Shown here: positions 22,323 to 37,961 of the stretch, piece by piece
How positions within the stretch are numbered: the first letter of the stretch is position 1
Layout of the letters: every line of letters starts with the position of its first letter
DNA from: a bacterium
GTDB lineage: Bacteria > Patescibacteriota > Dojkabacteria > SC72
Direction: 5' to 3'
Assembly: GCA_021108295.1 (NCBI GenBank)
Contig: JAIORF010000102.1
Location: 110,027-174,026 of the forward strand
Length of the DNA stretch: 64,000 nt
The notes under the pieces: model-generated
The model's database searches: none
Seen by the model: the letters and a program-made list of their open reading frames with translations, nothing else
What the model was told of the DNA's origin: nothing
Program-made: the position numbers and the translations under genes

Positions 22323-22349
22323 AATATTAATTACTTAAGTATAAAGGAA

Positions 22350-23756
22350 ATGGACAATACTGCTCAAAATGTTGGTGTGAATATTTCATATCCAAGTTTT
22401 AATAATGGGGCTAATACTACCCCTACTACTCCACTAGGGGGACCTGGTAGTGCTAATGGAGATTCTTTGAAGGATATTATTCCTGATGTGAAGAAGCCTA
22501 AGGCTGTGGAGCTCTCACCAGAGGAGAGCAATTTAGCAGAACCTACTGTGGAGCAGGATAATCGAGATGATAACTTTTTAATTCCACAGGAGAGTAAGGG
22601 GGATGTTGTTAATGACAAGAAGGAGGAAGTGAATCTGTCTGTACCAGAGACTGACGATCTCCCAGAGGAAAATATTGGTACGAATGTTGTGGGTAAGAGC
22701 AAGATGACTCAACTACTTGAGCATACAATTGAAAAAGGAGCTTCTGATTTACATATCTCTGTTGGGTATCCTCCAATTATACGTGTTGATGGGAAATTGC
22801 AAGAGATAAGTGATCAGATAATAGATCCTGTTGAGGCTGAGGAATTAATTCTCTCTCTTATTACTGATAACAAAAAAGAGTTGTTGGAAGTGAATAGAGA
22901 GATTGATTTTGCGTATAGCCATCAGGCTAAGTATGCTGGTAGATTCAGGGTTAACGCCTTCTATTCTATGAAGAGCCTTTCTGCTGCCTTCCGTCTTATT
23001 CCAACTAGGGTTAGAACTATAGAGGAGTTGAAATTACCACAGCTTTACCATCAATTCACACAACTTAAACAAGGGATGATACTTGTCACAGGTCCCACAG
23101 GACATGGTAAAAGTACAACATTAGCTGCAATGATAGAGGATATAAATAGAACTCGTTTTGCTCATATTGTTACCATAGAGGATCCAATAGAGTATCTTTT
23201 TGAGGGTAAGAAATCTCTAATAGACCAAAGAGAAATGGGACAGGATACTCATTCATGGCCTATTGCTCTTAAGAGTGCAATGAGGCAAGATCCGGATGTG
23301 ATACTTGTAGGAGAGATGAGAGATTACGAAACAATATCTGCTGCGATTACCTTGGCTGAAACAGGACACTTAGTATTTGCTACATTGCATACAAACAATG
23401 CGGCACAGAGTATAGATAGGATGATAGATGTCTTTCCAGAGGTACAGCAAGCACAGATAAGGGCACAATTATCAAACATTTTAGAAGCTGTTGTTGCTCA
23501 GAGGTTGATACCTCTTGATCATGGTGGAAGAATGGCTGTAGCAGAAATATTGATAGTGAACCCTGCAGTCAAGAATCTTATCCGCGAGGCAAAGACTCAT
23601 CAGGTTGACAATGTGATTAGAACAAGTTCAGATGTAGGTATGATTTCTTTAGAGAGATCACTAGTGCACTTAGTGAGGGAGGGTGTTATTAACATTAAAA
23701 CTGCTCAGGAGTTTGCTGTATATCCAGAAGAAGTAGCTAGATTATTAAAGTCATAA
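22350..23756 (+). CDS. pilT: Type IV pilus retraction ATPase PilT with a ~110-aa disordered N-terminal extension
   Basis: Walker A GPTGHGKSTT, PilT signature AVKNLIRE (AIRNLIRE), His box; N-terminal extension is low-complexity G/P/T/N/E-rich. Confidence 0.9.
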   Translation: MDNTAQNVGVNISYPSFNNGANTTPTTPLGGPGSANGDSLKDIIPDVKKPKAVELSPEESNLAEPTVEQDNRDDNFLIPQESKGDVVNDKKEEVNLSVPETDDLPEENIGTNVVGKSKMTQLLEHTIEKGASDLHISVGYPPIIRVDGKLQEISDQIIDPVEAEELILSLITDNKKELLEVNREIDFAYSHQAKYAGRFRVNAFYSMKSLSAAFRLIPTRVRTIEELKLPQLYHQFTQLKQGMILVTGPTGHGKSTTLAAMIEDINRTRFAHIVTIEDPIEYLFEGKKSLIDQREMGQDTHSWPIALKSAMRQDPDVILVGEMRDYETISAAITLAETGHLVFATLHTNNAAQSIDRMIDVFPEVQQAQIRAQLSNILEAVVAQRLIPLDHGGRMAVAEILIVNPAVKNLIREAKTHQVDNVIRTSSDVGMISLERSLVHLVREGVINIKTAQEFAVYPEEVARLLKS

Positions 23757-23760
23757 ATAT

Positions 23761-24993
23761 ATGAAGAAATTTAAATATTGGGCAAGAACACCAGATGGCA
23801 AAGAGGTTAAGGGTAGTTTAAATGCTAGAGACTTGAATGCTGTCTCTGAGATATTGCATGAGAGGGGGCTTGTAATTGTGAAAGTTAAGGACTCTTTTAG
23901 TCTTGATATGAAGAGGTTAACGGAGGTTAATATAGGGGGTGTACCTCTCAAAGAAAAAGTTGTATTTATGAGGCAGATGGCTACTATGGTGTCTGCAGGA
24001 TTAGCCATCACAAGGGCATTGGAAATAATGGAGCAGCAGATTGAGAACCCCCTTTTTCGAAGGGTAATATCCAATGTTAAGGTTGATATAGAATCCGGTA
24101 AGAGTTTGTCAGATGCGTTTAGAGCTCAGCAAGATATCTTTGATGATGTGACACTAAATCTTGTAGAGGCTGGTGAGTCTAGTGGTAAGTTGGATGTGGT
24201 TCTTGTGAAATTAGCGATAGAGTTAGAAGAGAAAAAGTCTTTGAATGCTAAGTTGAAGTCAGCATTGATTTATCCGATGATTATGCTTCTTGTTATTGTT
24301 GCTGTTGTGATACTTCTTATGTTTGTACTTGTTCCTGCGATGTCAGACATTTACGAGGAGTTTAATGCTACTCTCCCATGGACTACGACGGTACTTATTA
24401 ATGTAAGTGCTTTTGTTACCGATTATTGGTGGATTATCTTTATGGTTCTTGGTGTTGCTGTCATTGGTGGTAAAGCATATTTTGATACTCCTAAGGGAAA
24501 GAGGGTAATGGATAAGATAGTTATCAATATCCCTATTGTAAAGGATGTTGTGACCAAGATGCAGGTTGCTCAGTGTACAAGGATTTTGTCTCTCTTACTT
24601 TCTAGTGGTCTATCTATTGTTCGTGCATTAGAACTTACTGCAAATTCTTTATCGAATTCTCTGTTCAGGGATGTCTTACTAGATGCCAAAGATGATGTGG
24701 AGAAAGGAGGGTCCTTAACCCTTCCTATGTCTCGGAGTCAGTACTACCCTCTTCTTGTGAGTAGTATGATTGCTGTAGGTGAAGAGACAGGTAATTTGGA
24801 TGTCGTATTGGAAAAGATAGCACAGTATTACAAGGAGGAAGTTGATGAGGCTACGGGGAATCTTTCTTCCATACTTGAGCCTGTTTTCCTTGTTCTAATG
24901 GGAGTTACTATTGGTTTTATTGCTATGGCTGTATATATGCCTATGTTTCAATTAACAGAGGTGATGACTCAGTTGACAGTATGGTTGGTTTAA
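23761..24993 (+). CDS. pilC: Type IV pilus platform protein PilC (GspF family)
   Basis: Two GspF repeats, three TM segments, 410 aa; follows pilT by 5 nt. Confidence 0.9.
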   Translation: MKKFKYWARTPDGKEVKGSLNARDLNAVSEILHERGLVIVKVKDSFSLDMKRLTEVNIGGVPLKEKVVFMRQMATMVSAGLAITRALEIMEQQIENPLFRRVISNVKVDIESGKSLSDAFRAQQDIFDDVTLNLVEAGESSGKLDVVLVKLAIELEEKKSLNAKLKSALIYPMIMLLVIVAVVILLMFVLVPAMSDIYEEFNATLPWTTTVLINVSAFVTDYWWIIFMVLGVAVIGGKAYFDTPKGKRVMDKIVINIPIVKDVVTKMQVAQCTRILSLLLSSGLSIVRALELTANSLSNSLFRDVLLDAKDDVEKGGSLTLPMSRSQYYPLLVSSMIAVGEETGNLDVVLEKIAQYYKEEVDEATGNLSSILEPVFLVLMGVTIGFIAMAVYMPMFQLTEVMTQLTVWLV

Positions 24994-25039
24994 TGTAATT
25001 TTGTATTAGGGAATATATAAATTATTTTTATTTAAGACA

Positions 25040-25597
25040 ATGAGAAAGAGTTTTAAAGCTTTTACACTTGTTGAGATGCTTATCGTCATGGGAATTATCA
25101 TAATCCTTATGGCTGTCGGTATTGCAAGTGGTAGAGCAGCATTGAGAAATGCAAATAAGATTGAGCATCAGAATGCTGCAGAGCAGATTTATCAAGCTAT
25201 GCAGGGTTACTATGCCGATAATAGAGAGTATCCAGCTGAGGCTACACCTGCAGTTTTACTAGCAGCAGATGGAGATCTTGATGAATATGTAGATGAATTT
25301 GATGGTGGTAGTGCAGCTACATATGCATATCTAGTAGATTCAACACAGCAAGAGTTCTTGGTATGTACGACCATTGGTGGTGCTGGTGATGTAGCACATC
25401 TTGGTATTTACTGTACAGGAAATGGTCTTTCTAGTGATTTAATTACTGGAACACCTACTACAAAATTCTCTGAGTATGTAGCATCTCCAACGGATTATGA
25501 TGATGTCAGGGTTTTATTTGTAGATGCAAATGCTATAGATTGGGACTCTGAGGGAGATTGGGGAACTACAAGGACTGATATTGCAGCTGTAGAGTAA
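25040..25597 (+). CDS. Major type IV pilin (class III signal peptide)
   Basis: MRKSFKA|FTLVEMLIVMGIIIIL: short basic leader, F at +1, E at +5, hydrophobic alpha1 helix. Ala at -1 instead of the canonical Gly. Strong terminator follows. Confidence 0.8.
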   Translation: MRKSFKAFTLVEMLIVMGIIIILMAVGIASGRAALRNANKIEHQNAAEQIYQAMQGYYADNREYPAEATPAVLLAADGDLDEYVDEFDGGSAATYAYLVDSTQQEFLVCTTIGGAGDVAHLGIYCTGNGLSSDLITGTPTTKFSEYVASPTDYDDVRVLFVDANAIDWDSEGDWGTTRTDIAAVE

Positions 25598-25620
25598 CCC
25601 GTTATTTTGTTAGAGATATC

Positions 25621-25642
25621 ACTCCCCTCTTTTGAGGGGAGT
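25621..25642 (+). terminator. Strong rho-independent terminator after the major pilin gene
   Basis: ACTCCCCTC-TTTT-GAGGGGAGT (9-bp GC-rich stem) followed by TTTGGTTATT. Confidence 0.7.
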
Positions 25643-25724
25643 TTGGTTATTACTACGAGCTATTGATGCGAAAAACGAATTAGGTTATCATTAAATACAA
25701 AATATATTTTATTATACAAAGTAA

Positions 25725-26621
25725 ATGAAAAAGAAAATTGTTCTAATAGTGCTTTCGATTGTTTTTGTAATACTACTTATAGCCTCTGTCCTATTTATTA
25801 CTAGGTACACATCTAGTGCAGATAAATATGCTTCCCTTATGAAGCTCTGTTTATCCAGTCAAGATGCTGGTGTCACAACTACCTCGTGTAAAGGGTTTGT
25901 AAAGTCGGTATCGGAAGAAGATTCTGCAAATCCATGCTTTGACTTACTTCTTATTACAGGAGAAGGAGAGTATGAGGAACATACAATGTGTGTGGAGGAC
26001 TCTATAGTGGAGTGGACCAATCCTTATGATGATTACACTAGTCTTATACCAGTGAATATAGATGTAAGTTATAAACAATTCTTGTCCTTAGATATCCTCT
26101 TTAGTGAGAGAGTAAAGATATCTCTTTTGGATGACGAAGAGACGTTTGCCTTTCTTGATAGTGATAATATAGTCGAGGAGAATTCTTCCTTATTTGCTAA
26201 CATCCGTATTCAAGAGAATGAGGCCATTATGGATAAAGGATATTATATGACGGGGAAAAGCGGTTCTGGTGTCTCTGATAATCTTGTGTTTATTCAAGTT
26301 GCAATAAGAGAGATTTTGATAGATGGTTCCGAGATGACTTTTCATCTAGTTAGTTCTATTGATGGCAAGAGGGTTATGTTTGAGGTAAATACAGAGGTTT
26401 TTGAGTATATGCAAGCAGTAGATTATGAGCAAGTAGTAACAGATATTACAGTATTAAATACTTCTGTCTTAGATGTTGAAGAGACCTACGATGTAGTATT
26501 TGTTATCAATCCTAATATTTTTGAATTGGAGGAGTTTATAGAATCAATGTTGTCCATTGATCAAGAGGGACCCTTTGTTATGGAGGGTTTGGAACTTATT
26601 CTGATGATGGCAAACTTTTAG
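25725..26621 (+). CDS. Hypothetical membrane-anchored protein in the pilus locus
   Basis: 298 aa, N-terminal signal-anchor IVLIVLSIVFVILLIASVLFI, acidic extracytoplasmic domain. Confidence 0.45.
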   Translation: MKKKIVLIVLSIVFVILLIASVLFITRYTSSADKYASLMKLCLSSQDAGVTTTSCKGFVKSVSEEDSANPCFDLLLITGEGEYEEHTMCVEDSIVEWTNPYDDYTSLIPVNIDVSYKQFLSLDILFSERVKISLLDDEETFAFLDSDNIVEENSSLFANIRIQENEAIMDKGYYMTGKSGSGVSDNLVFIQVAIREILIDGSEMTFHLVSSIDGKRVMFEVNTEVFEYMQAVDYEQVVTDITVLNTSVLDVEETYDVVFVINPNIFELEEFIESMLSIDQEGPFVMEGLELILMMANF

Positions 26622-26660
26622 GATCCTGCTTGTTTATAGATAAATTCATAGACATCATAT

Positions 26661-28487
26661 ATGTCCAACCCTGAGATAGGAGAGAGTAGTACTTTACAAG
26701 GAGGTTTAGATCCTAACCATTTTGGATTTAAGCCAAAAGCTCGGGATAGTCACGAGATTAGGACTCTTCCTAAAGGAGTTAAACCAGCAATATCAGCAGC
26801 AGTTTTAGCTGCAATAATGACGTCATCTGGAATAGTTGCTTGTACATCTAAAGAAAGCTCTGCTGCTCCAGTAGAACCAACTCCTACGGAACAGTATAAT
26901 CCAACTTTAGTAATGGAAACTCTTCCTGATCCTACAGATGTTGGAGCAACTTTTACCCCAGTCCCACCACCTACTCTAGAGCCTACTGAAGTAATAGAAA
27001 AAGAAGTCGACTTTTTGGGAATGATGGAAGGTCTTGAGGTAGTATCTAGAGAGGAAGTAAGCAGTGTTTATGAAACAATTCAAGGGACAACGGTTTTTGA
27101 GATCCCAGTTACAGAAGGAAAGAGAAGCTTTGTAGATAGCTCAAGAGCAGTATCTATGTATGAGATGGGAGCAGGAATACTTCTTCCAGGGTCTGAGGTA
27201 GTAACAATGGTAGATGGACAAGGTGTAGAAATTAAAATGGTCATTGTGGAAGATATTTTAACATCTGGTGATAACAAATCAATCTTAGTTCTAGTTGTAA
27301 AGGATAAGGAAGGAGAGCTCTTCACTACAGAGCAAGAGGATAGTGGAGCCTTAGTTACTGGAGTAATTCCTAACTTTAGAGAATATACTCCTGAGCAGGT
27401 TGAAACTTTATCCCAATCTTTAGAGAAGTTTAGGGAATATCAGGAACAAATGGGAGCATTTAGGAATGGAGCTAAATATCCTTACAGTCTTGTATTTGGA
27501 GAGGGAGAGAATGAGGTGATATCTTTTCTTGGAGAGATGATGAAAAGGTTGAATGAAAGCGATTCTACAGAACCGGACTTTATTGCAAAATTTGATGAAT
27601 ATGTAAACTCTCGGCTTACTTTGACAGAAGATGGTGCTCTGATAGTTACTTTTCTTCAAGAGGATACATTGCTCCAAAGTGACTTATCAGATCTTTCTGT
27701 AGGAGGGTTTCCTCCCCAAGAGTCCCCGTCAAGTAAGGGAATGACTTTAGAAGAAGAGGAAATGGTAGAGAGTTTAGTAAATTTGTCAGGAATGGGAGTT
27801 TTTCTTAATGACCCAAAGCAGAAAGAACAAGTGTTGGAGTTTGTAAAGTTTAGAGATGCTCTGAATGGTTCTAATGGGAGTGTAGAGGGATTAGGAAAGA
27901 TAAATACAGATAATGAGAATATGAATAATGCAATGGAGTTTCTAGCAAATTTTGTTGAGCAAGGTGGTGAGTGGAACTCAATAGCTTTAGCATACGCTTT
28001 AAGAATAGCATTTCCAGATTTAGGAGTCCCCAAGCTTGGTGATAAGCCACAAGGGACTGTTGTAGAAGTTTTTAGAGATAATAGTGATCCTCGGCTTAGT
28101 GAGGGTATTCCAATTATGATAGATGTGATGAATTTAGGGTATGACTTTCCACAGTTAGCAATTATCCCAACTCTTTATGGTGGATCAATAGCCTTGGGGC
28201 CTCCAGAAGATTTATATCCTAAATTGGATAGTGGAAGTATTATTTTTCGTAAAAATATAGAGATTAAGGAGAATCCAGAAATGGATAAATTACAAGTAGT
28301 TCTTGCTAAAAGTGTGGCAAGTGATGGGAGTATCTCCTATCTTATTGTCGAGCTTGACGAAGAAGGAAAAATGATAGTATATACAAGCCAAGATAATAAG
28401 GATGAGTTGATTGCAAATAAGCAGTGGGTTATAAAGGATGGATATAGTGGACCTAACATTTTCCCTTCTTCACCACCAGGGGGATAA
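26661..28487 (+). CDS. Hypothetical secreted protein or lipoprotein in the pilus locus
   Basis: 608 aa. Hydrophobic segment ending in a lipobox-like IVAC after a long n-region, PT-rich linker, large soluble domain. Confidence 0.5.
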   Translation: MSNPEIGESSTLQGGLDPNHFGFKPKARDSHEIRTLPKGVKPAISAAVLAAIMTSSGIVACTSKESSAAPVEPTPTEQYNPTLVMETLPDPTDVGATFTPVPPPTLEPTEVIEKEVDFLGMMEGLEVVSREEVSSVYETIQGTTVFEIPVTEGKRSFVDSSRAVSMYEMGAGILLPGSEVVTMVDGQGVEIKMVIVEDILTSGDNKSILVLVVKDKEGELFTTEQEDSGALVTGVIPNFREYTPEQVETLSQSLEKFREYQEQMGAFRNGAKYPYSLVFGEGENEVISFLGEMMKRLNESDSTEPDFIAKFDEYVNSRLTLTEDGALIVTFLQEDTLLQSDLSDLSVGGFPPQESPSSKGMTLEEEEMVESLVNLSGMGVFLNDPKQKEQVLEFVKFRDALNGSNGSVEGLGKINTDNENMNNAMEFLANFVEQGGEWNSIALAYALRIAFPDLGVPKLGDKPQGTVVEVFRDNSDPRLSEGIPIMIDVMNLGYDFPQLAIIPTLYGGSIALGPPEDLYPKLDSGSIIFRKNIEIKENPEMDKLQVVLAKSVASDGSISYLIVELDEEGKMIVYTSQDNKDELIANKQWVIKDGYSGPNIFPSSPPGG

Positions 28488-28598
28488 TGAAATTAGAATT
28501 ATTGAATAGAAACTTTATTATTAACTCCAAACCCTTGATGATAAGAAAGAATTAGTTTATTATTAAGTAGAAACTATATTCTAATAATTTAGTAACAA

Positions 28599-31223
28599 AT
28601 GAAAAAGAAAACTGTCTTAGCTATATTTATCGTTTTGTCAAGTTTAGTCTTAGGAAGTTTCATCTTTAAGAGTGATGTTTCTGCATATGACTGTAGGGCT
28701 ATGGGGATGCAATGTCAGGCACCTCATGGAAGTTTTACAAGAAATGTTTGGCAGTGGTATAGAACATTCTACTGCTACAAGCAGACGTGGAGGGTTTATT
28801 ATCGATGTTATGGTAACGATAGAAATTGTACAGGAGGTCATTACTATTATCGAACTTCGGCAGATTGCTGGGCGAAACGTCGTATCAGATTCGCTGGTTG
28901 TTGTGAGGAGATTTCTTGTACCCCCGGCTGTACCCCTCCTGCCTGTCCCTCAGGGACCTCTGCTTCAGGCACAGGAGACTTGTATACCCCTCGTCCTAGT
29001 TGTAGAGACGATTGTGGAGATAGACACTATCGTAATTGTTGGTATGACTGTACAGACCCTACCTGCCAAGAACTTAACTCAGAACTGTATGATGTATGTC
29101 CTGGAGGACAAACCTGTGGAGGTCCTGTCACTATCACCTACACCGACTCAGTAGCCTGTGGAGGAGCTACGCATAGCAAACAATGTGTATTCGTAAGAAA
29201 TAGTCGTCCAGTTAGTACAGACCTCACTATTTACTACGGAGACTTTGGTACAGTCCAAGGAACCCATACTAGCCAATCACCATGGTTTAATAAGATTGTG
29301 AAAAGCCTCTCTGCACAAGAACTAGAAGGTGGAGTAGACCGAATACTAGGATTCACATCTACAGAATACTCCGGAAGTAGCCTTAACAACCCAATCAAAA
29401 TACGAGCAGAATACCAAGATGCCGACGGTTCTAACGATATTGTAGCCATCTATGTATGGTGGTCTGAAAGTGAGACAGTAGATTTCATTACCCCAGATAG
29501 AATAGCGGCTGCCTCTGAAGGCCTCTCTTCTCAATCGGAAAGTGAAGACTCTTGGGGCTTTATGCTAAGACGTGTGGGAGGAAGTTGGACTACAGTATAC
29601 TCACCATATATCAGTAGTACTGATGCAGCTTGGGTTGAAATAGGGTATGTAGGAGGAGGTTCGTCTCCTTCCTCTATTCTCTCTCCTTCTGGCGAAGAAA
29701 TGGCTGTTCTCCATAATGTTGAGGTTACTGATATCTCTGGAGGTAGAGTAGAAATAGAACTCTTACTAGAATTCGTAAACTCGGGGACTAGTCCAGCAAT
29801 AGCTGAAGGAGAATACAAGATATGGAACTTTGCTAATGATGTAGACGGGTTCTTACCGTTTGAAAGTGATCCAGATATAGAAGATGTGATAGTGGATAAC
29901 GACCTTTGGGAAGATAGTACAATGGATTGGAATCTTGATTTAGAAGAACCAAGTATTTGGGCAGAAACTATATCCGAAGTAAGTGACGGAGTTCTAGCTC
30001 TTGATTTTAATGTGTCTGATATAGATAACTTCGGACTCTCCTATGTACGCATAGATGCGTGTAGGACGGGAGGAAGTACTACTGATGTCCTTACACCTAC
30101 ACTTAACGGTGTTCCTGGTAGTTCTTACACCATGCCAACCTGTGATGCATGTTCCTCTTTCTCTGGTATAGATATAACGAGTGATCTAGATCTCTTAGGA
30201 GGCGATGGAACAATCCTTAGTTCTACTACTCATACATACTCCCCAATGACCTTAAGAGTAGCGCTAAATTCTAACGAAAACGGAGCTATAACCTTCTGGA
30301 TAACAGCAATGGATATGGCAGGTAACTACCAACAATCCACAATAATTTACGAACTAGGAAAATGGATGATAGCTACGGATGGTTTTGTGTACGGAACCGA
30401 CGGAGTAAGTGCAAATACGAGGAATATAGCAGATGGTGTATGGAATGCTCCTTCTGAATTGTTTAATTATAACTTTGATGAACCAACCGCAGATTTAACA
30501 GATTTGGTCCTTTTGGGAGGTCATAATAATACGGCAAGCTTCTTGGGTATGTTAGTGAAATACAATGAGAACAATTCTTTTAAAGTTGCTCACTTCCCTG
30601 GAGTCTATATTAATTCTCCTTATACAGAACTTTTAGCAGCTTACAATGCTAAAACAGAGAATCTCTTGCTAGATTACGATGAAATTAGTGATACAAGTAT
30701 TAGTGGTAATCTTACCAGTCTTTTTGGTGCAGTTCATGACTACTATATAGTGAATAATAGTGGGGATACAACCATAAGCTCTAGCTTTGTATGTGATGGA
30801 CAAGGATTGATAATGGTAGATGGTGATATAACTATCACACCCGATGTTGTAAATAGTACGGCTTTGGATGCATGTATAGTGCTTGCTTCGGGAGATATAA
30901 TAATCGAGGATGGTAGTAATAAGACTGATTCTGGTGCGTTTGGGTATGATTTACTCCACGCGTTCCTCATTGCTAACGGAGAGATAATTATAGACGCTGA
31001 CGCTCACAATGATGGTTTACTGGTAGAAGGGGGTTTGGTAGCTTTTACGCCAAATACTGCTAGTGGGGCTATAGTAAACAACAGAGAAATGGATGTAGCT
31101 ACCTCTAATATTTATCCAATATTAGCAGTGAACAACAATGCTAAGTATGGATTACTAAGTAAAGTTCTCTTTGGTTCTCAAATAGATGTGTTTAAGCTTG
31201 AGATTGGGTTTAAGCCTTACTAG
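28599..31223 (+). CDS. Large secreted Cys-rich protein (candidate pilus-associated adhesin or tip protein)
   Basis: 874 aa. Signal peptide, then ~170 aa with more than 25 cysteines and locally elevated GC, then a long beta-rich region with GDI(T/I)I repeats near the C-terminus. Confidence 0.55.
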   Translation: MKKKTVLAIFIVLSSLVLGSFIFKSDVSAYDCRAMGMQCQAPHGSFTRNVWQWYRTFYCYKQTWRVYYRCYGNDRNCTGGHYYYRTSADCWAKRRIRFAGCCEEISCTPGCTPPACPSGTSASGTGDLYTPRPSCRDDCGDRHYRNCWYDCTDPTCQELNSELYDVCPGGQTCGGPVTITYTDSVACGGATHSKQCVFVRNSRPVSTDLTIYYGDFGTVQGTHTSQSPWFNKIVKSLSAQELEGGVDRILGFTSTEYSGSSLNNPIKIRAEYQDADGSNDIVAIYVWWSESETVDFITPDRIAAASEGLSSQSESEDSWGFMLRRVGGSWTTVYSPYISSTDAAWVEIGYVGGGSSPSSILSPSGEEMAVLHNVEVTDISGGRVEIELLLEFVNSGTSPAIAEGEYKIWNFANDVDGFLPFESDPDIEDVIVDNDLWEDSTMDWNLDLEEPSIWAETISEVSDGVLALDFNVSDIDNFGLSYVRIDACRTGGSTTDVLTPTLNGVPGSSYTMPTCDACSSFSGIDITSDLDLLGGDGTILSSTTHTYSPMTLRVALNSNENGAITFWITAMDMAGNYQQSTIIYELGKWMIATDGFVYGTDGVSANTRNIADGVWNAPSELFNYNFDEPTADLTDLVLLGGHNNTASFLGMLVKYNENNSFKVAHFPGVYINSPYTELLAAYNAKTENLLLDYDEISDTSISGNLTSLFGAVHDYYIVNNSGDTTISSSFVCDGQGLIMVDGDITITPDVVNSTALDACIVLASGDIIIEDGSNKTDSGAFGYDLLHAFLIANGEIIIDADAHNDGLLVEGGLVAFTPNTASGAIVNNREMDVATSNIYPILAVNNNAKYGLLSKVLFGSQIDVFKLEIGFKPY

Positions 31224-31234
31224 TTTGCAGTGGT

Positions 31235-32050
31235 TTGATATATAATGGACATATGCAGATTATCTTAATCATATTCGCCTTTTTAGTAGGTATTGTATCT
31301 GCTAGTTTTCTTAATGCTTTGATGTATAGGTTGGATAAAGAATATAAGTATCCAAACATATTTGTTAAACCTTCTCATTGTGAGAAGTGTAATAAACAAT
31401 TAAAGAGTTATGATCTTGTTCCTATCTTGTCATACATCTTTTCTAGAGGTAAATGTAGTAAGTGTGGGTCTAAGATTACAGTCTACTATCCGATATCCGA
31501 GTTGATACTGGGTATTTCTTTTGCATTATTCTTTTTGAATGGTGTGTCATGGTTTATGTATTTTGTTTTAATCTTTCTCTTCTGTCTCTGCTATTTTGAT
31601 TATATTTATAAAGCTATACCCCAAGTCCCTACTCTACTATTTAATGTGTTGGGTATAATGTATGTGATAGTATTATCTGTTGTTGCGAAAGAGTTGGTAC
31701 TAAATGCTCTTCTCTCAGGGATATTGCTCTTGTCTGGTATGTGCATATTGCTAATTGTAATGTACGGAATTAAGGGTTTTACTATTAAAGATGGTCTAGA
31801 AGGATTAGGTAGTGGTGATTTCCTCATTCTTTTTGGTTTAAGTATGCTTTTGTCTATAGAACAGTTTTGGGTGATGTTCTGGATATCAATTCTACTTGCA
31901 CTACTCTTCTTTATACCGAGTTCCATATTAGGAAAGATGAATTTGAAATCCTCTCTTCCACTTCTACCTTTCTTTACTTTGGGATATATCGTAGTGGTAG
32001 TGTATGGTGAGAGTATATTTGAATATGTAGAGGGTGTGTTGATGATGTAG
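31235..32050 (+). CDS. pilD: Prepilin peptidase PilD (A24 family)
   Basis: N-terminal CEKC...CSKCG zinc-finger-like motif, 6-8 TM helices, catalytic Asp motifs FDYIYKAIP and GSGDFLILFG. Confidence 0.85.
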   Translation: MIYNGHMQIILIIFAFLVGIVSASFLNALMYRLDKEYKYPNIFVKPSHCEKCNKQLKSYDLVPILSYIFSRGKCSKCGSKITVYYPISELILGISFALFFLNGVSWFMYFVLIFLFCLCYFDYIYKAIPQVPTLLFNVLGIMYVIVLSVVAKELVLNALLSGILLLSGMCILLIVMYGIKGFTIKDGLEGLGSGDFLILFGLSMLLSIEQFWVMFWISILLALLFFIPSSILGKMNLKSSLPLLPFFTLGYIVVVVYGESIFEYVEGVLMM

Positions 32051-32112
32051 AGGGTTTACTAGGAGGTATTGATGACAAAAGGTATTTCGGCTATTATAGA
32101 GAGTGAAGTAAA

Positions 32113-32787
32113 TTGATTTACTGCCTAATGGAAAAGATAAGAGCGTATACATTAATGGAAATGTTAATTGTTATGACCATTATGGTGATTCTTCTCTCCG
32201 TTGGTATTTATTCATATGCCTCTTTTGCAAAGACTACTCAGTTTAATCAAGATGTGGCAGATATCCAAAATGATGTATTAATTATGCAAAGAGCTGCTAT
32301 GCTCTTTGAGAAAGATCCTGATGAATATTGGTTGTACGGTATTGGAATTGATTTTGAGGATCTTAGTAGTGGTGACGGGAAATATTCTTTTTTTAAGTGG
32401 TGTTCGGAGTATCCTGATTTCGGTGGTGTGAGGACTAAGAGTGAGTATCCTAATTACGATCCAGCCTATTCGTTTAGTGAGACTAACGGGAATATTCCAA
32501 CAGGTATATCTGAAGGGACTTGTAATGGCGCAATGAAGTTGGTTAAGTTGTCTGGATATGGTGTAGGGAATTTAAATCTGGATGAGGATGTATCTATTGC
32601 AAATGGTAGGTTTCTTCTTTTTGAAGCTGTGTCTGGTAGAGCTTTTATCTATGATTCTAGTGGTGTTTTGGTAAATGATGCAAATATTGAGATTACTTTG
32701 GATAAGAGGGTTGGTGATATACATGTGTTAGTTATTAAAAATTTAACAGGTAGAATTGAATTAATTAATATAGGGGATGATGAATAA
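32113..32787 (+). CDS. Minor pilin / pseudopilin
   Basis: (M)EKIRA|YTLMEMLIVMTIMVILL prepilin N-terminus with E at +5 and Ala at -1. Confidence 0.7.
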   Translation: MIYCLMEKIRAYTLMEMLIVMTIMVILLSVGIYSYASFAKTTQFNQDVADIQNDVLIMQRAAMLFEKDPDEYWLYGIGIDFEDLSSGDGKYSFFKWCSEYPDFGGVRTKSEYPNYDPAYSFSETNGNIPTGISEGTCNGAMKLVKLSGYGVGNLNLDEDVSIANGRFLLFEAVSGRAFIYDSSGVLVNDANIEITLDKRVGDIHVLVIKNLTGRIELINIGDDE

Positions 32788-33346
32788 AAGAATAAAAGCT
32801 TTGGGTTTTGTAGAAGTTATGATTGCTATAGTGGTAGTTGGTATTGTGTCTGCTGTTTTTCTTACCATTTCTGCTAGAGCAATGAAGGCTCTTGTACAAA
32901 CAGAAAGATTGGAATATATGTCTAGGATTGCTACGGATGGTGCCAATATTGCACAAGAGGTAGCTAATCAACAAAAGGCAGCATTAACTGGCGAGGGTCC
33001 TTACTTCCCCTCAGAGGCTATTGATGTAGGACGCTGTTTTATTCCGTTTAGAGAAGAGAGTGGAGAAAATGTGTTTTACTACTTCTTACGTGAGGAGGGA
33101 GGTATGGAGGGGCAGTTCATTTCAATTCTTAATGGTGATGATACGGAGACACGAGACCTTTTTATAGAAAATGGTGCAGATACACATGAAGACTATTTTC
33201 TTGTGATGTGTATTCAGTCTATGGATGCTACAGGTACTAGATGGGCTAATGTCGAGTTTAGGGTGGGTGATGTAAAGTTGGCTGGTGTACGAACTACGGA
33301 TAGTGATCTTAAAGATTTTAAATATTATGCCATTATTGATTTATGA
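32777..33346 (+). CDS. Minor pilin / pseudopilin
   Basis: MMNKRIKA|LGFVEVMIAIVVVGIV prepilin-like N-terminus (E at +5 if cleaved after KA). Confidence 0.6.
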   Translation: MMNKRIKALGFVEVMIAIVVVGIVSAVFLTISARAMKALVQTERLEYMSRIATDGANIAQEVANQQKAALTGEGPYFPSEAIDVGRCFIPFREESGENVFYYFLREEGGMEGQFISILNGDDTETRDLFIENGADTHEDYFLVMCIQSMDATGTRWANVEFRVGDVKLAGVRTTDSDLKDFKYYAIIDL

Positions 33347-34038
33347 AGAACTTTTTTAAAGCTTTTAGTTTGGTAGAGATGATAATTACGTTAGGTATTC
33401 TTTCTATAGTTATGCTTATAGCTACACAAACTCTTGTCACTATTGTTAGAGTTTCTTCTATTTCCAAATACAAAACGGTTACTAAGAATGAAATAGGGTT
33501 TTCCATGGAGTTAATAGATAGGTTGTTGTCGAATTCTAGTGTCGCTGATGTTTATGTGTATGATACTATTAATGCAAGACAGTATGATCCAGAGGCTGAA
33601 GCTATAGTAGAGGTTGATCCAGGGACTTATAATTTAGATGAGATATATAGTATAGAATTAGCCCCTGGGATTACTGGTAACGAAATACATGTTAGACCGT
33701 ATGGGTATGATATCTGGGCTTGCATAGCTCTTTTTATGGATGTAGACAATAGTAAGGGATATCTTGTGAAAAGAACAATGGGAAGTTTTGCTGATGGTCA
33801 TAAGTCTTGTTTTGATACAGGTGTTTCTCTTTCAGATCCCCTACTCGTTTTGGTGTCTGATGAGGTAATGGTTAATGAGTTTAAGGTGTCATATACTCAG
33901 AGTTCTTCTAACAACAACATCTTTTATGTAGATCTTGAGATGGAGCCTATATATTGGGTGGGTGGTAGTCATGCTGCTATAGGGAAGACTGTTTTTAGAC
34001 AGGCTGTAATTACAACTCAGGGTTTGACGTGGTATTAA
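33343..34038 (+). CDS. Minor pilin / pseudopilin
   Basis: MKNFFKA|FSLVEMIITLGILSIV prepilin N-terminus; overlaps the previous gene by 4 nt. Confidence 0.7.
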   Translation: MKNFFKAFSLVEMIITLGILSIVMLIATQTLVTIVRVSSISKYKTVTKNEIGFSMELIDRLLSNSSVADVYVYDTINARQYDPEAEAIVEVDPGTYNLDEIYSIELAPGITGNEIHVRPYGYDIWACIALFMDVDNSKGYLVKRTMGSFADGHKSCFDTGVSLSDPLLVLVSDEVMVNEFKVSYTQSSSNNNIFYVDLEMEPIYWVGGSHAAIGKTVFRQAVITTQGLTWY

Positions 34039-34042
34039 TTTA

Positions 34043-34987
34043 TTGTTAAATTATTGTATGATGAAAAAATATTACAAGGGACAGGCGTTAGCGATAGTTA
34101 TGGTGGTTTTAGTGGTTGCATCTATTATTGGTGTATCACTTTTCTCTAGGATAAGTAAGGATAAGGAGTCGGCGATTAATCAGCAGGACTCTGCTTTGGC
34201 AGAGGAGCAGTCTGATGGTATATTGGATATTTTTGTGGGTGCCGATGTTATAGCTTTGGAAACTAAAATAAGGGAAGGTGTGGGACCGTTTGAGAGTATC
34301 TCTAGTTCAGAGTTCGCCTCTTTTATTACTGATATTGGTGGAGATCCCGATGCATTACCTGATGAGGATGTAGGATGTCAGGAGGAGAGTTCAAGCATAT
34401 TGGTTACTGTTGGGCAGAGTGATGATGATGATTTTGTAGAAGTACAGCATGGTAGTGTGAGAGTTTATAGTTTAGATGGTGCTACGGTAGTAGCTCCATG
34501 TCTTCTAACTTGGAGATTTAGACCTGTAGATGAATCAGTTGCTTTCCTTGTTGCGTATATTATGAATGATGGGAGTGTTGTCACACAATCTGAAGAACAC
34601 TATTGTGTCACTTCAGATGGTTCTGCTTGTACTACAATTGAGAATGTAGAATATCTTAGTAGTTTTCTAAATACCGGAGATATGGCATCAGTTGGAGTTA
34701 TGGATGCTGATGGTGCTTATCCTAGGACTATTGATCTTGTTGCTAGGTTTGCAGCTGATGTGATAGAGATTCGTGTTATTCCTATTGCTGGTACATTGGC
34801 TGTGGCTGATTCGTTGAATGATGTGACCTGTATTGATAGGGAGTTTAGGTCTATTAAAGTTCGTTCGGAGGTTAATTGCAATGGTTCTTATAGGGGGAAG
34901 GAGATGCTTTTACCAGGTTCTGGTAATCTTGGTTATTCTCCTCTTTTTGATTATGCTATTTATGATAATGGTTTATTTCAACCTTAA
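34043..34987 (+). CDS. Pilin-like protein lacking Glu5 (PilX/ComGG-like candidate)
   Basis: MMKKYYKG|QALAIVMVVLVVASIIG hydrophobic N-terminus without E at +5. Confidence 0.4.
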   Translation: MLNYCMMKKYYKGQALAIVMVVLVVASIIGVSLFSRISKDKESAINQQDSALAEEQSDGILDIFVGADVIALETKIREGVGPFESISSSEFASFITDIGGDPDALPDEDVGCQEESSSILVTVGQSDDDDFVEVQHGSVRVYSLDGATVVAPCLLTWRFRPVDESVAFLVAYIMNDGSVVTQSEEHYCVTSDGSACTTIENVEYLSSFLNTGDMASVGVMDADGAYPRTIDLVARFAADVIEIRVIPIAGTLAVADSLNDVTCIDREFRSIKVRSEVNCNGSYRGKEMLLPGSGNLGYSPLFDYAIYDNGLFQP

Positions 34988-35007
34988 GGTATTTATTCTT
35001 TAGTAAT

Positions 35008-35391
35008 ATGGATAATAAAAAAACAATATTAATTATCGAAGACGAAAAGGTTTTGTTAGGGTCGTACTCAGAGGCTTTGGAGTCTAAAGGGTATTCTGTA
35101 TTAAAGGCCTTGGATGGTTACAAGGGGTTGGATATAATAGCGGAGAATATTGGTAAGATTAGTTTGATCCTTCTCGACCTTATGATGCCAGGTGTAGATG
35201 GTTTAGAAGTTCTTAGAACTATCAAGGATGATAAAGATAAGTATGGTAGTGTTCCCATTATTGCTCTTACCAACATGACATCAGAGAAGGTTATTAAGGA
35301 TGCTTTTGATTTGGGTGCGACATCATATTTAGTGAAAACGGACTTGGATTATGAGGGGTTAATAAAAGAGGTTAATAAATTCTTGGGTTAG
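35008..35391 (+). CDS. Stand-alone CheY-like response regulator receiver
   Basis: ILIIEDE, DLMMPGVDG (phospho-acceptor Asp), T and K positions conserved; 127 aa, no output domain. Confidence 0.8.
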   Translation: MDNKKTILIIEDEKVLLGSYSEALESKGYSVLKALDGYKGLDIIAENIGKISLILLDLMMPGVDGLEVLRTIKDDKDKYGSVPIIALTNMTSEKVIKDAFDLGATSYLVKTDLDYEGLIKEVNKFLG

Positions 35392-35449
35392 GTTCCCAAT
35401 CTTACGAGTTTCTGCTAATATGTAGATAATAATTTAAACTGTCTTAGCA

Positions 35450-36481
35450 ATGGCTAAACTGCCTGACCATGTAGGTGTTGATTTCGGTACACACTCAGTG
35501 AAAGCTGTCGAGCTTAAAGATATCACTACCCCTACTCCACAACTGGTTAATTTTGGAAGCCAAACAACTCCACAGGGTGTTATCAACAGTGAGGATAAAA
35601 ATGATCAGAAGAAATTATCTGAGGTGCTCAAGAAGCTCTATGGAGATAGTAAGATTAAGAACAAATCTGTAGTAGTTGCATTGCCTGAGTTTTCTGTATT
35701 TACTCGATTTCTAGAATTCCCTGGAGTAAAAAAAGAAGAGCTAGAAGATGCAGTTTTCTATGAAGCTAAACAATATATTCCAGTACCAATAGATGAGGTG
35801 AGAATGAGTTATGTAACCATTGGTTTTAATGAAGCTAAGAATGCTCCTCGTGTACTTCTTGTAGCTGCTCCTCTCAAGATTATAGATATATACAGAGATA
35901 TATGTGAGATGGCAGCATTAGATGTAATTGCAATAGAAACAGAGTCTGTAGCATTAGGAAGAGCCATGTATAGAGCTACTAAACAAAAGCATGTTGTTAT
36001 GTTGGATTTTGGTGCGAATAGTACAGATATGAGCATAATGCTCGATGGATATCTAGTGTTCTCTCAGAGTATCTCTATTGGGTCCGATTCTTTGACACAG
36101 TCAATAATTAATAAGTTTAATTTTGAGTATAAGCAGGCTGAGGAATACAAACGTAACTATGGAGTTGTAAAGAATGTCCTTGAAGGGAAAATATATCAAG
36201 TACTCTCCCCTATTCTGGAATCTATAATGCTTGAAGTAAGAAGAGGTATAGAGTTTTATAAAAACAAAACACTTGCACCTGCACCTACAAACTTTCTTCT
36301 TACTGGAGACGGTGCATTGCTTCCAGGTTTGTCGGAGTACATATCTTTTGCCTTAAATGTAAATGCTTCTATAGCTAACCCTTGGATGAACATTGTAGTG
36401 GATCAAAAATTTAAAGACATTATTTCCAAGAGTGGGCCTTCTTACTCTGTAGCAATTGGATTAGCACTTAAAGATGAATAA
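35450..36481 (+). CDS. pilM: Type IV pilus assembly protein PilM (actin-like ATPase fold)
   Basis: VGVDFGTHSVKAVEL N-terminal phosphate-1 motif, ~340 aa. Confidence 0.85.
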   Translation: MAKLPDHVGVDFGTHSVKAVELKDITTPTPQLVNFGSQTTPQGVINSEDKNDQKKLSEVLKKLYGDSKIKNKSVVVALPEFSVFTRFLEFPGVKKEELEDAVFYEAKQYIPVPIDEVRMSYVTIGFNEAKNAPRVLLVAAPLKIIDIYRDICEMAALDVIAIETESVALGRAMYRATKQKHVVMLDFGANSTDMSIMLDGYLVFSQSISIGSDSLTQSIINKFNFEYKQAEEYKRNYGVVKNVLEGKIYQVLSPILESIMLEVRRGIEFYKNKTLAPAPTNFLLTGDGALLPGLSEYISFALNVNASIANPWMNIVVDQKFKDIISKSGPSYSVAIGLALKDE

Positions 36482-37241
36482 TAATGAGGAGAAACAAAAT
36501 ATTGAGGTAGAGAAAAAGCAGAAGAAATCTTTTCTGTCTAATTTTGTTGAGATAGAGTCTAAAGAGAAGGTTGTTATTGAAACCAAGAATATAGCTCGTC
36601 AGGAGAAAGAAGTTAAAAAGATTAAGATAAAAGCTGAGATTGATGATGAATCACAACTCTCTGACCAAGAGAAACTACTGCTTCATACTGGTGCTGGTGT
36701 AAATCTAATACCAAAGAAATCAAAGGCTGAGGTTGTAAAAGCTAAGAAGAAGTTTTCTTTCAATGTTTCTTCTATGGTAAGTTTACTTTTGTTGGTAGTC
36801 CTTTCTTTGAGTGTTGTACTGTTTAATATTGTATCTAAGCAACAGCTGAATAGTGCAACAGAAGATTTGTTCCAGAAAGAGAGTGAGTTGGAGGTATATG
36901 GTGATATGATATTGTCAAATAATGAGATACTTGAGAGGATAGATCTTTATAAGCATTTAGAACAAGGAGTGTTTTCTCCAAAGGAAATAGTGGTATATGT
37001 TATGACAATAGTTGATAGAAGTGGCAGTATTGTTATCAGAACTTTTGATATTGGAAATGATTTGGGCTTTGAAATGAGTGGTAGTACTTCTGATTTGGCT
37101 GTAGTTGCCAAATTGTGGTATTTGTTAGGTATTGATGAAAATATTGATAATATTAATCTAGAATCTGTAGGGAAGAGTGATAAAGGGGCTTCGTTTTCGT
37201 TTAAGGGTCAACTAAATACATCTAACTTTATAGGGGATTAA
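36474..37241 (+). CDS. pilN: PilN-like bitopic protein
   Basis: Long charged N-terminal region, single TM (VSLLLLVVLSLSVVLFNIV), coiled coil, periplasmic domain; overlaps pilM by 8 nt. Confidence 0.55.
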   Translation: MNNNEEKQNIEVEKKQKKSFLSNFVEIESKEKVVIETKNIARQEKEVKKIKIKAEIDDESQLSDQEKLLLHTGAGVNLIPKKSKAEVVKAKKKFSFNVSSMVSLLLLVVLSLSVVLFNIVSKQQLNSATEDLFQKESELEVYGDMILSNNEILERIDLYKHLEQGVFSPKEIVVYVMTIVDRSGSIVIRTFDIGNDLGFEMSGSTSDLAVVAKLWYLLGIDENIDNINLESVGKSDKGASFSFKGQLNTSNFIGD

Positions 37242-37961
37242 ATGTCCATTGGTATTTCTAAGAACAATTTGGATAATAGAAAGGTTGGTAAGAAGCTAGC
37301 TACTATTAGTAAGAGGTCTAAGAAGAGTCAATTAGAGTTATCTGATTTGGTTATTCCGTTATCTTCTTTTGTAATATTAGTACTTCTTACATTCTTTGTG
37401 TTTATACCCATGGTTGAAACGGCAAATGAGAGTAGAGCTGAGTTAAAAGAAGTACAAGAAAAGTTGACAGCATTAAATACATTGGAGAGTAAGTTAGGAG
37501 AGATGAATGAGACTTCATTGTTGGAAGATTTGGTAATGGTCAAAACGATTATACCAAAGGTTTTACAAGTTTCAAGTTTTGTTTATTACATTGATACTCT
37601 TGCGATGAGTAAAGATTTGGTGACGAGAGAGATAAGTGCGGGGGATGTTAATATTGGAGGTGATCCTACTGAGTCCAAGACAAGTCAGGGTGTAAGTGGT
37701 CCGCTTTCCTACTCTGGTAGGTACGAGGATGTTCTAGATTTCTTGGAAGAGATGCAGGGGTATTCTCCATATTTAGTTACATTAAGAAACATTTCGTTGA
37801 CAGGAGGAGAAGAGAATTGGTCTGTGAGTTTTGATTTAGTTGGTTACTATATTCCAGAGGAGAGTAAGAAGTTGGATCTTTATGTGCCATTTACGCCATA
37901 TACTTCTTTTTCGGATATTATAGATAGTTTTTCACTTAGAGTAAGTAAGCTGGATGAATAG
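37242..37961 (+). CDS. pilO: PilO-like bitopic protein
   Basis: Single TM (FVILVLLTFFVFIPMV) followed by a coiled coil; starts 1 nt after pilN. Confidence 0.5.
   Translation: MSIGISKNNLDNRKVGKKLATISKRSKKSQLELSDLVIPLSSFVILVLLTFFVFIPMVETANESRAELKEVQEKLTALNTLESKLGEMNETSLLEDLVMVKTIIPKVLQVSSFVYYIDTLAMSKDLVTREISAGDVNIGGDPTESKTSQGVSGPLSYSGRYEDVLDFLEEMQGYSPYLVTLRNISLTGGEENWSVSFDLVGYYIPEESKKLDLYVPFTPYTSFSDIIDSFSLRVSKLDE

Follow-up and report, generated by a model that had tools for sequence, protein, structure and literature searches.

A putative tip adhesin family linked to the type IV pilus genes of Dojkabacteria

Introduction

Proteins of the PilC/PilY1 type dock at the tip of type IV pili (T4P) by strand addition, in which their final ~10 residues join the PilK/GspK-type pilin of the tip initiation complex; docking by a terminal strand has been predicted likewise for MshQ, CpaL needs its terminal strand, which is modelled as joining its own pilin-like domain, and GspK supplies the final strand in cis (Ellison et al., PMC13533445). 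ComZ of Thermus thermophilus (PDB 6qvi) is a proposed DNA receptor at the tip of the competence pilus (PMC6561018). In TM7x, the saccharibacterium Nanosynbacter lyticus, PilX1 and PilX2 are candidate tip adhesins with large accessory domains that have been implicated in host binding (PMC11623550). In this study, three genes encoding non-pilin proteins, designated A298, B608, and C874, were analyzed in the T4P locus of a bacterium of the Dojkabacteria (lineage SC72). The DNA investigated, hereafter the window, is a 64,000-nucleotide stretch of GenBank assembly GCA_021108295.1 (contig JAIORF010000102.1, positions 110,027 to 174,026, forward strand).

An attached life on other cells is assumed for Patescibacteria (candidate phyla radiation, CPR), whose most conserved surface machines are T4P. 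We know of no identified pilus-tip occupant or host-choice determinant outside one cultivated Saccharibacterium. The C874 family supplies candidate host- or surface-recognition proteins for Dojkabacteria, and its invariant terminal peptide provides a docking prediction that, if true, would extend beta-strand addition to monoderm-like, ultrasmall CPR bacteria. In that case, host-recognition determinants of an uncultured lineage would have been identified, and the copies present would govern the choice of host cells or surfaces that these episymbionts grasp. A ComZ-like solenoid on a separate polypeptide would illustrate how tip adhesins evolve when domains split or fuse around the last pilin strand. 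The literature searched contained no prior description of the C874 family, and ComZ was the only pilus protein found there with a DUF3494-type domain.

Results and Discussion

C874 as a Candidate Tip Adhesin

The three open reading frames (ORFs), all on the forward strand, occupied positions 25725-26621 (A298, 298 amino acids), 26661-28487 (B608, 608 amino acids), and 28599-31223 (C874, 874 amino acids), exactly as given in the initial annotation. Their reported location between the genes for the major pilin and the prepilin peptidase was borne out by an N_methyl match upstream and an A24_N_bact match (3e-26) downstream. The complete T4P locus extended from 20517 to 37961 in the order PilB, PilT, PilC, major pilin, A298, B608, C874, PilD, four minor pilins, a receiver-domain protein, PilM, and PilN/O-like proteins (Table 1). 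Matches to N_methyl or TIGR02532 were given by the five true pilins of the locus; A298, B608, and C874 showed neither of these matches and no class III signal peptide motif, which indicated that they are not pilins, and searches of all three against Pfam and NCBIfam yielded zero matches.

Table 1. Features of the T4P locus, in window coordinates.
Feature	Position	Strand	Remarks
Major pilin, 185 aa	25040..25597	+	prepilin N-methylation motif; PF07963 N_methyl 1.4e-5, above cut-off
Terminator-like hairpin 3' of pilin gene	25621..25642	+	9 bp stem, 6 G-C pairs, T-rich tail; consensus scan
Promoter-like element, copy 1	25663..25694	+	TTGATG-N17-TATCAT, GAATTAG in spacer, 62 nt before A298 ATG
A298	25725..26621	+	N-terminally anchored acidic extracytoplasmic protein, 4 invariant Cys; conserved upstream partner of C874 family
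B608	26661..28487	+	lineage-specific, membrane-tethered or lipoprotein-like, acidic; charged N-extension, hydrophobic segment with IVAC, Pro/Thr linker, two domains
Promoter-like element, copy 2	28535..28566	+	TTGATG-N17-TATTAT, shared spacer motif, 64 nt before C874 ATG
C874 signal peptide, aa 1-29	28599..28685	+	KKK, hydrophobic core, VSA then Y; read from sequence
C874 Cys-rich module, aa 30-200	28686..29198	+	20 Cys, pI 8.1, variable part of the family
C874 central beta-sandwich (Ig/FnIII-like), aa ~250-600	29346..30398	+	all-beta, pLDDT mostly >90
C874 right-handed beta-solenoid, aa ~690-860	30666..31178	+	holds GDITI/GDIII/GEIII turns
C874 extreme C-terminal tail, aa 861-874	31179..31220	+	QIDVFKLEIGFKPY; candidate trans-donated beta-strand
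Prepilin peptidase PilD	31235..32050	+	PF06750 (A24_N_bact) 3.2e-26
Three minor pilins (224, 189, 231 aa)	32113..34038	+	GspH/I/J-like order; N_methyl motifs
mp314, largest minor pilin	34043..34987	+	PilX/GspK-like, without Glu5; sub-threshold PilX_N, GspK
PilM and PilN/PilO-like genes	35450..37961	+	PF11104 PilM_2 3.9e-55

The evidence presented below leads us to lean, by a small measure, towards C874 being a secreted, non-pilin tip adhesin, analogous to PilY1, that would insert its C-terminal strand into the minor pilin mp314 and thereby form a "split ComZ". A conserved unstructured tail, a ComZ-type solenoid, coupling to mp314, and a variable N-terminal half together point to a PilY1-like role on a split ComZ-like scaffold.

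Members of the C874 family were collected by an exhaustive HMMER search and counted as representative clusters. The family comprised at least 278 clusters, 93 of them at E <= 1e-30, and lacked a Pfam or NCBIfam model. Word-index homology searches were nearly blind to the families of the three proteins (2, 2, and 4 matches), and it took the exhaustive HMMER search to reveal that of C874. All relatives recovered from genome collections came from metagenome-assembled genomes (MAGs) of Candidatus Dojkabacteria or other Patescibacteria, the C874 family being mainly one of Dojkabacteria. Its architecture consisted of a hydrophobic leader, a variable Cys-rich region, and a conserved core of ~620 residues (~250-874). 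N-terminal hydrophobic leaders recurred throughout the family; that of C874 is a predicted Sec-type signal peptide, for which cleavage between VSA and YDC was deduced from the sequence alone.

In nearly all full-length members, the C-terminus conformed to (K/R)YG.L...FG......K.E(V/I)GFKP(Y/F). Its last 12 residues ranked among the five most conserved 12-residue stretches in 85 aligned members, and E(V/I)GFKP(Y/F)-COOH occurred in every C874-like ORF of the loci compared below and nowhere else in them. In a monomer model of C874, the final 14 residues formed a coil with a predicted local distance difference test (pLDDT) score of about 50. Two other explanations for the tail were rejected: a sortase or exosortase sorting signal, on the lack of a transmembrane segment and of an LPXTG or PEP motif, and an outer-membrane beta-signal, on a hydrophobic periodicity that was wrong for it. 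Unlike MSCRAMM/LPXTG adhesins (microbial surface components recognizing adhesive matrix molecules), C874 ends in GFKPY.

The C874 structure, modelled with AlphaFold2 (AF2) from the family alignment, had a mean pLDDT of 82 and a predicted template modelling score (pTM) of 0.69. Residues 250-860 mostly exceeded 90, while values were low at residues 23-110 and ranged from 72 to 92 at residues 110-220. Foldseek matches of the central beta-sandwich, which resembles immunoglobulin (Ig) and fibronectin type III (FnIII) domains, included the Ig-like adhesins CfaB, Cnm, SdrE, ClfA, and SiiE and also the HPI S-layer protein (E from 3e-5 to 1e-3), with the Ig-like adhesin FnBPA as a further match, the Ig-like matches having low TM-scores. 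Comparison of the family profile with PDB sequence profiles gave a weak match to Tie2 FnIII and nothing else. Against a viral fold library, C874 gave generic FnIII/Ig matches only and therefore no sign of a phage origin.

GDI(T/I)I repeats had been read as suggestive of a beta-solenoid. The AF2 model agreed with this by placing the turns GDITI (residue 742), GDIII (765), and GEIII (794) in a right-handed solenoid at residues ~690-860. Its fold was similar to that of ice-binding proteins (IBPs), and its best pilus-related structural match was ComZ. An unrelated enzymatic fold, named in the initial annotation as the contrary outcome, was not found in C874 by the structural search, which instead returned Ig-like sandwiches and the ComZ-type solenoid. 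DUF3494/IBP-1 ice-binding proteins (3wp9, 7bwx, 6bg8, 5uyt) share the right-handed solenoid scaffold at 11-18% identity. The isolated solenoid domain had no Pfam match even at E <= 10, Ice_binding (PF11999) included, and since the genomic context gives no reason for ice binding, the scaffold alone appears to be shared. A few C874 relatives gave sub-threshold matches to Cthe_2159 and DUF7305 only.

According to the model, C874 resembles ComZ in having an IBP-like beta-solenoid domain, with no detectable sequence similarity between the two proteins. However, ComZ is itself pilin-like, with an N-terminal helix that shares one polypeptide with a GspK-like domain, whereas the C874 model contained no helix-plus-sheet pilin domain and C874 has a predicted cleavable Sec signal, additional Ig-like and Cys-rich modules, and a very acidic composition. 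The match to ComZ, a DNA binder (PMC6561018), could also mean that C874 is itself a receptor of the ComZ kind, located at a competence-pilus tip, with extracellular DNA as its ligand. Dependence of CPR bacteria on imported nucleotides and the linkage of their T4P to competence genes (PMC6744442) would fit such a function, as would the Cys-rich module, which is the sole, mildly basic part of C874 (pI 8.1). The strong acidity of mature C874 (pI 4.19, net charge -67; solenoid alone -19; family median pI 4.6) nevertheless argues against DNA, and hypervariable N-terminal modules in multiple copies, some with lectin, discoidin, or von Willebrand A (vWA) domains, are a better fit to diverse surface ligands. 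A DNA-receptor function is accordingly quite unlikely in our judgement.

With PilY1/PilC-type tip proteins, C874 has in common its large size, its linkage to minor pilins, a variable adhesive N-terminal part, and a conserved C-terminal end as a docking candidate; some C874 relatives also contain vWA domains. The earlier statement that obvious similarity to PilY1/PilC is lacking proved accurate: C874 has neither the C-terminal seven-bladed beta-propeller nor a vWA fold, and no match to the Neisseria_PilC/PilY1 Pfam models. By analogy, the C874 family is best read as functional analogues of PilY1/PilC, MshQ, CpaL, and ComZ.

Variable N-Terminal Region

The N-terminal module had been credited with more than 25 cysteines in ~170 residues. 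This number was wrong, residues 30-200 containing 20 cysteines and the entire C874 protein 25. A raised GC content of this stretch was real (0.467, versus 0.40 in the rest of the gene and 0.366 in the window). Since the excess was located at codon positions 1+2 (0.526 versus 0.455) and GC at position 3 (GC3) was ordinary (0.351; neighboring genes 0.26-0.36), it reflects the Cys/Gly/Pro/Arg content of the module rather than foreign DNA, and horizontal acquisition as its source was rejected. An enrichment of MdbA-like disulfide oxidoreductases has been described for CPR genomes (PMC6744442) and is in keeping with an extracellular module rich in disulfides.

Across the family, the Cys-rich region was very variable in length and contained from 0 to >70 Cys. 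Longer relatives carried inserted vWA, LamG/pentaxin, discoidin, Listeria-Bacteroides-repeat, and glycine-rich domains, and one MAG encoded at least four family members. Large extracellular proteins of Peregrinibacteria, another CPR group, have been proposed to function in attachment (PMC4736985). Like C874, they are secreted, Cys-rich, and variable; by their description they are set apart from it by their larger size, the lack of a reported pilus linkage, and the lack of a defined C-terminal motif.

Two tandem C874 paralogues (880 and 973 amino acids) fill a 5.9-kb contig (L001, 261-5842), and the N-terminal module of one of these contains cysteine repeats of the Myxococcus type (CGNGxxExGExCD), a sign of module swapping within the family. 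Six assemblies of the organism and its sister (L002, L003, L004, L040, L041, and L043) end within the first 120-410 codons of C874, corresponding to about 28599-29830 in the window. These repeated breaks suggest strain-level heterogeneity of the Cys-rich/N-terminal region within populations. In locus L010, an orphan 36-codon remnant (about 6070-6162) ending in ...SQVEIFRLEIGFKPY is situated just ahead of pilM (6225) and 3' of a seemingly disrupted C874-like gene (pieces of 661 and 197 amino acids) and a reverse-strand ORF of 205 amino acids. It resembles a scar left at the conserved 3' end by an insertion or by replacement of a cassette.

Genomic Linkage of C874 to Pilus Genes

Linkage was investigated by tblastn searches of the pilus proteins of the window against 39 fetched loci, whose ORFs were also listed. 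In most of about 30 related loci, C874-family genes adjoined T4P genes, usually just upstream of PilMNO. Co-occurrence of the three proteins with T4P loci, which had been suggested as a check, held for C874 and A298, which were linked to these genes across related genomes, and failed for B608. The parallel with tip adhesins drawn in the initial annotation also stood: in the window and in the majority of related loci, the core minor pilins of the T4P are encoded alongside a C874-family protein. A sister MAG (L002) had the same arrangement as the window. C874-like genes were located directly upstream of PilM-N-O in L005, L007, L009, L010, L012, L015, L017, L020-L023, L036, and L038. Where the contig was long enough to show it (L009, L012, and L020), the gene order was PilC-pilin-PilD-pilin-mp224-mp189-mp231-mp314-receiver (RR)-partner-C874-like (1 or 2 copies)-PilM-N-O; in L005 it was seen from mp231 onward.

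In most Dojkabacteria, the gene is immediately 5' of pilMNO, near the position of pilP/pilQ in diderms, and CPR bacteria lack PilQ (PMC6744442). In the absence of an outer membrane, C874 could in principle be a part of the pilus machine, for instance a collar that spans the wall or S-layer in place of a secretin. Machine parts are normally single-copy and conserved, in contrast to the multi-copy C874 family with its hypervariable N-termini and optional binding domains. Moreover, some family members are found in stand-alone cassettes, accompanied by nothing but a partner and a PilX-like pilin, and we regard a machine function as very improbable.

These cassettes were found in nine divergent loci (L027-L035), in which a partner gene is followed by a C874-like gene (1088-1322 amino acids) and a gene for an mp314-like pilin. 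In the cassettes with listed ORF boundaries, the start of the pilin gene overlapped the stop of the C874-like gene (L027, L028, L031, and L035) or was separated from it by 11 nt (L029 and L034). The mp314 gene is the fourth of the minor-pilin operon, and its product lacks Glu5. Both the C-terminal FDYxI(Y/F) motif of mp314 and the adhesin tail were invariant in the two types of loci. Upstream partners, in contrast, belonged to at least five families that were not linked by BLAST, that of A298 being the commonest. Invariance of the tail and of the mp314 C-terminus alongside unrelated partners points to mp314, rather than the partner, as the receptor of the tail.

From these observations we infer a tip location for C874, strand donation, a ligand-binding end, and a role for A298. 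C874 would be exported by Sec, and its variable N-terminal Cys-rich module and Ig-like domains would form the ligand-binding end. The conserved solenoid would be seated on the minor-pilin initiation complex, with the last ~10-14 residues (...KxE(V/I)GFKPY) entering the PilX/GspK-like mp314 as a beta-strand, and a retractile T4P would bring the adhesin to the cell exterior on its tip. As PilT is encoded in the locus, the adhesin would be pulled on, which fits a buried strand anchor. In TM7x, a jelly-roll or propeller domain is fused in cis to PilX. C874, likewise read here as a candidate tip adhesin of Patescibacteria T4P, has a different predicted fold and is a separate polypeptide. By these computations, a free-standing solenoid adhesin exported by Sec would be another solution than the fused PilX of TM7x.

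A broader proposal is that Dojkabacteria and other Patescibacteria possess exchangeable tip cassettes, consisting of an anchored partner, a Cys-rich solenoid adhesin, and a PilX/GspK-like pilin, in which a GFKPY strand mediates docking and several hypervariable copies per genome set the choice of host or surface. We advance this generalization tentatively and consider it doubtful.

A298 and Other Upstream Partners

A298 was correctly described as signal-anchored, having an N-terminal hydrophobic anchor and no prepilin motif. Its homologues were encoded directly 5' of C874-like genes in L005, L008, L009, L019, L020, L026-L028, L031, and L034, and C42, C55, C71, C89, W97, and P109 were invariant in the family alignment. 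A298 may act as a dedicated membrane tether or chaperone that would hold the adhesin at the membrane until it is captured by the tip complex; such tethers or chaperones would be needed because these cells have no periplasm in which a secreted protein is retained. This step is the weakest part of the model.

In all 17 C874-like genes for which the upstream region was readable, the gene directly upstream encoded an N-terminally membrane-anchored protein, at a gap of -17 to +1 nt. This overlap or close abutment at the 5' end would also be expected if C874 and A298 constituted a two-component surface or S-layer-associated adhesin, held by the transmembrane helix of A298 and co-regulated with the pilus but outside the filament. 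The structural matches of the Ig-like domains to MSCRAMM-type adhesins and to the Deinococcus HPI S-layer protein are in line with such a system, as are the similar promoter-like elements that A298 and C874 each have, separate from the pilin. However, with partners from at least five unrelated families and an invariant tail, the tail is unlikely to bind the partner. The consistent placement in T4P operons also speaks against it, as does the overlap, in the cassettes, of the C874-like stop with the start of a gene for a PilX/GspK-like pilin, and C874 has no cell-wall sorting signal or C-terminal transmembrane segment. A surface adhesin of this kind therefore seems unlikely to us.

Several observations weigh against C874 as a pilus-tip adhesin docked on mp314. 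C874-like copies in L001, L006, L008, L019, and L025 came from short contigs that showed no pilus gene, which would suit a surface adhesin outside the filament. The assignment of mp314 to the PilX/GspK class relies on sub-threshold matches (PilX_N, E 0.009; GspK, E 0.18; both short of their cut-offs), gene order, and the missing Glu5, and is tentative; a comparison of the mp314 profile with PDB profiles gave nothing meaningful. The low pLDDT of the tail may reflect model uncertainty only, and the AF2 model of A298, built from an alignment of four sequences, was unusable (pLDDT 48.9).

In L016 (842-1733; JGI metagenome contig Ga0255379_10110), which was otherwise 100% identical, a frame change of one base at codon 133/134 breaks A298 in two. 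An error of sequencing could account for it; alternatively, the allele could be phase-variable or pseudogenised.

B608

The three proteins had been proposed to form one complex. No conserved trio was found: B608, which is identical to NCBI protein K8R14_03465, is an orphan confined to the window and one sister MAG. Apart from itself, its only homologue was a 340-amino-acid version in that MAG (L002 10001-11023), from which ~205 residues (~132-335) are missing. B608 interrupts the A298-C874 gene pair, the members of which are elsewhere adjacent and usually overlapping. It was therefore regarded as an accessory surface protein specific to its lineage rather than a member of a conserved complex; in the proposed mechanism, it would be a recent insertion between A298 and C874, tethered to the surface and accessory at best.

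The earlier description of B608 as lipoprotein-like was consistent with IVAC at residues 58-61, which fits the lipobox pattern [LVI][ASTVI][GAS]C, and with the Pro/Thr-rich linker that follows. It accorded less well with the position of the cysteine, at residue 61 behind a conserved, charged extension of 41 residues. In the sister MAG, IVAC is replaced by IGAC and the charged N-extension is kept. Judged by its sequence, B608 may be a bitopic membrane protein or else a lipoprotein whose n-region is unusually long. The segment absent from the sister protein weakly resembles the C-terminal domain of B608 itself (residues 190-233 versus 544-586), which suggests an internal duplication in the lineage of the window.

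Positionally analogous "third" proteins of 540-640 amino acids were encoded in L006 (4500-6197), L012 (6436-8370), and L029 (5596-7212). They have a large acidic N-terminal domain, which is probably cytoplasmic, and a C-terminal ectodomain; between these lies a transmembrane segment, whose end reads ...AC(S/A)PIVSG in two of the three proteins. They are possible signalling or anchoring components. Descent of B608 from a common ancestor with these proteins (L012_644, L006_565, and L029_538) was rejected as unproven: the hhalign probability was 0.3, and BLAST gave E=0.13 over the transmembrane and linker region only.

Promoter-Like Elements and Other Features of the Locus

The strong terminator-like hairpin downstream of the major pilin gene sets the pilin transcript apart from A298. 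The 32-nt promoter-like element that follows it, and that recurs ahead of C874, reads TTGATG-N8-GAATTAG-NTTATNATTAA, with TTGATG as -35, a 17-nt spacer, and TATYAT as -10. Both copies were kept in the sister MAG (L002 9011 and 11071), and the conserved spacer sequence GAATTAG may be the site of a regulator. A weaker copy, with 5 mismatches, was present ahead of the sister pilM (L013 4378).

The window (GC 0.366) is chromosomal, with gyrA, gyrB, holB, ruvB, mutS, and enolase among its housekeeping genes. Identity of the major pilin with its copy in the sister MAG was 91%, and the minor pilins of 224, 189, and 231 amino acids gave sub-threshold matches to GspH/ComGD, ComGE, and GspJ/PilV. The stand-alone receiver-domain protein (127 amino acids, 35008-35391), which showed 61-80% identity among Dojkabacteria loci, is a constant component of the T4P gene set. 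It is encoded in the gap between the last minor pilin and pilM in the window, and just ahead of the partner/adhesin pair in relatives. Elsewhere in the window, a protein of 1191 amino acids (6489-10064) gave a weak, sub-threshold match to a GT-C/AftD-like arabinofuranosyltransferase N-domain and possibly represents a large membrane glycosyltransferase with a bearing on the cell envelope.

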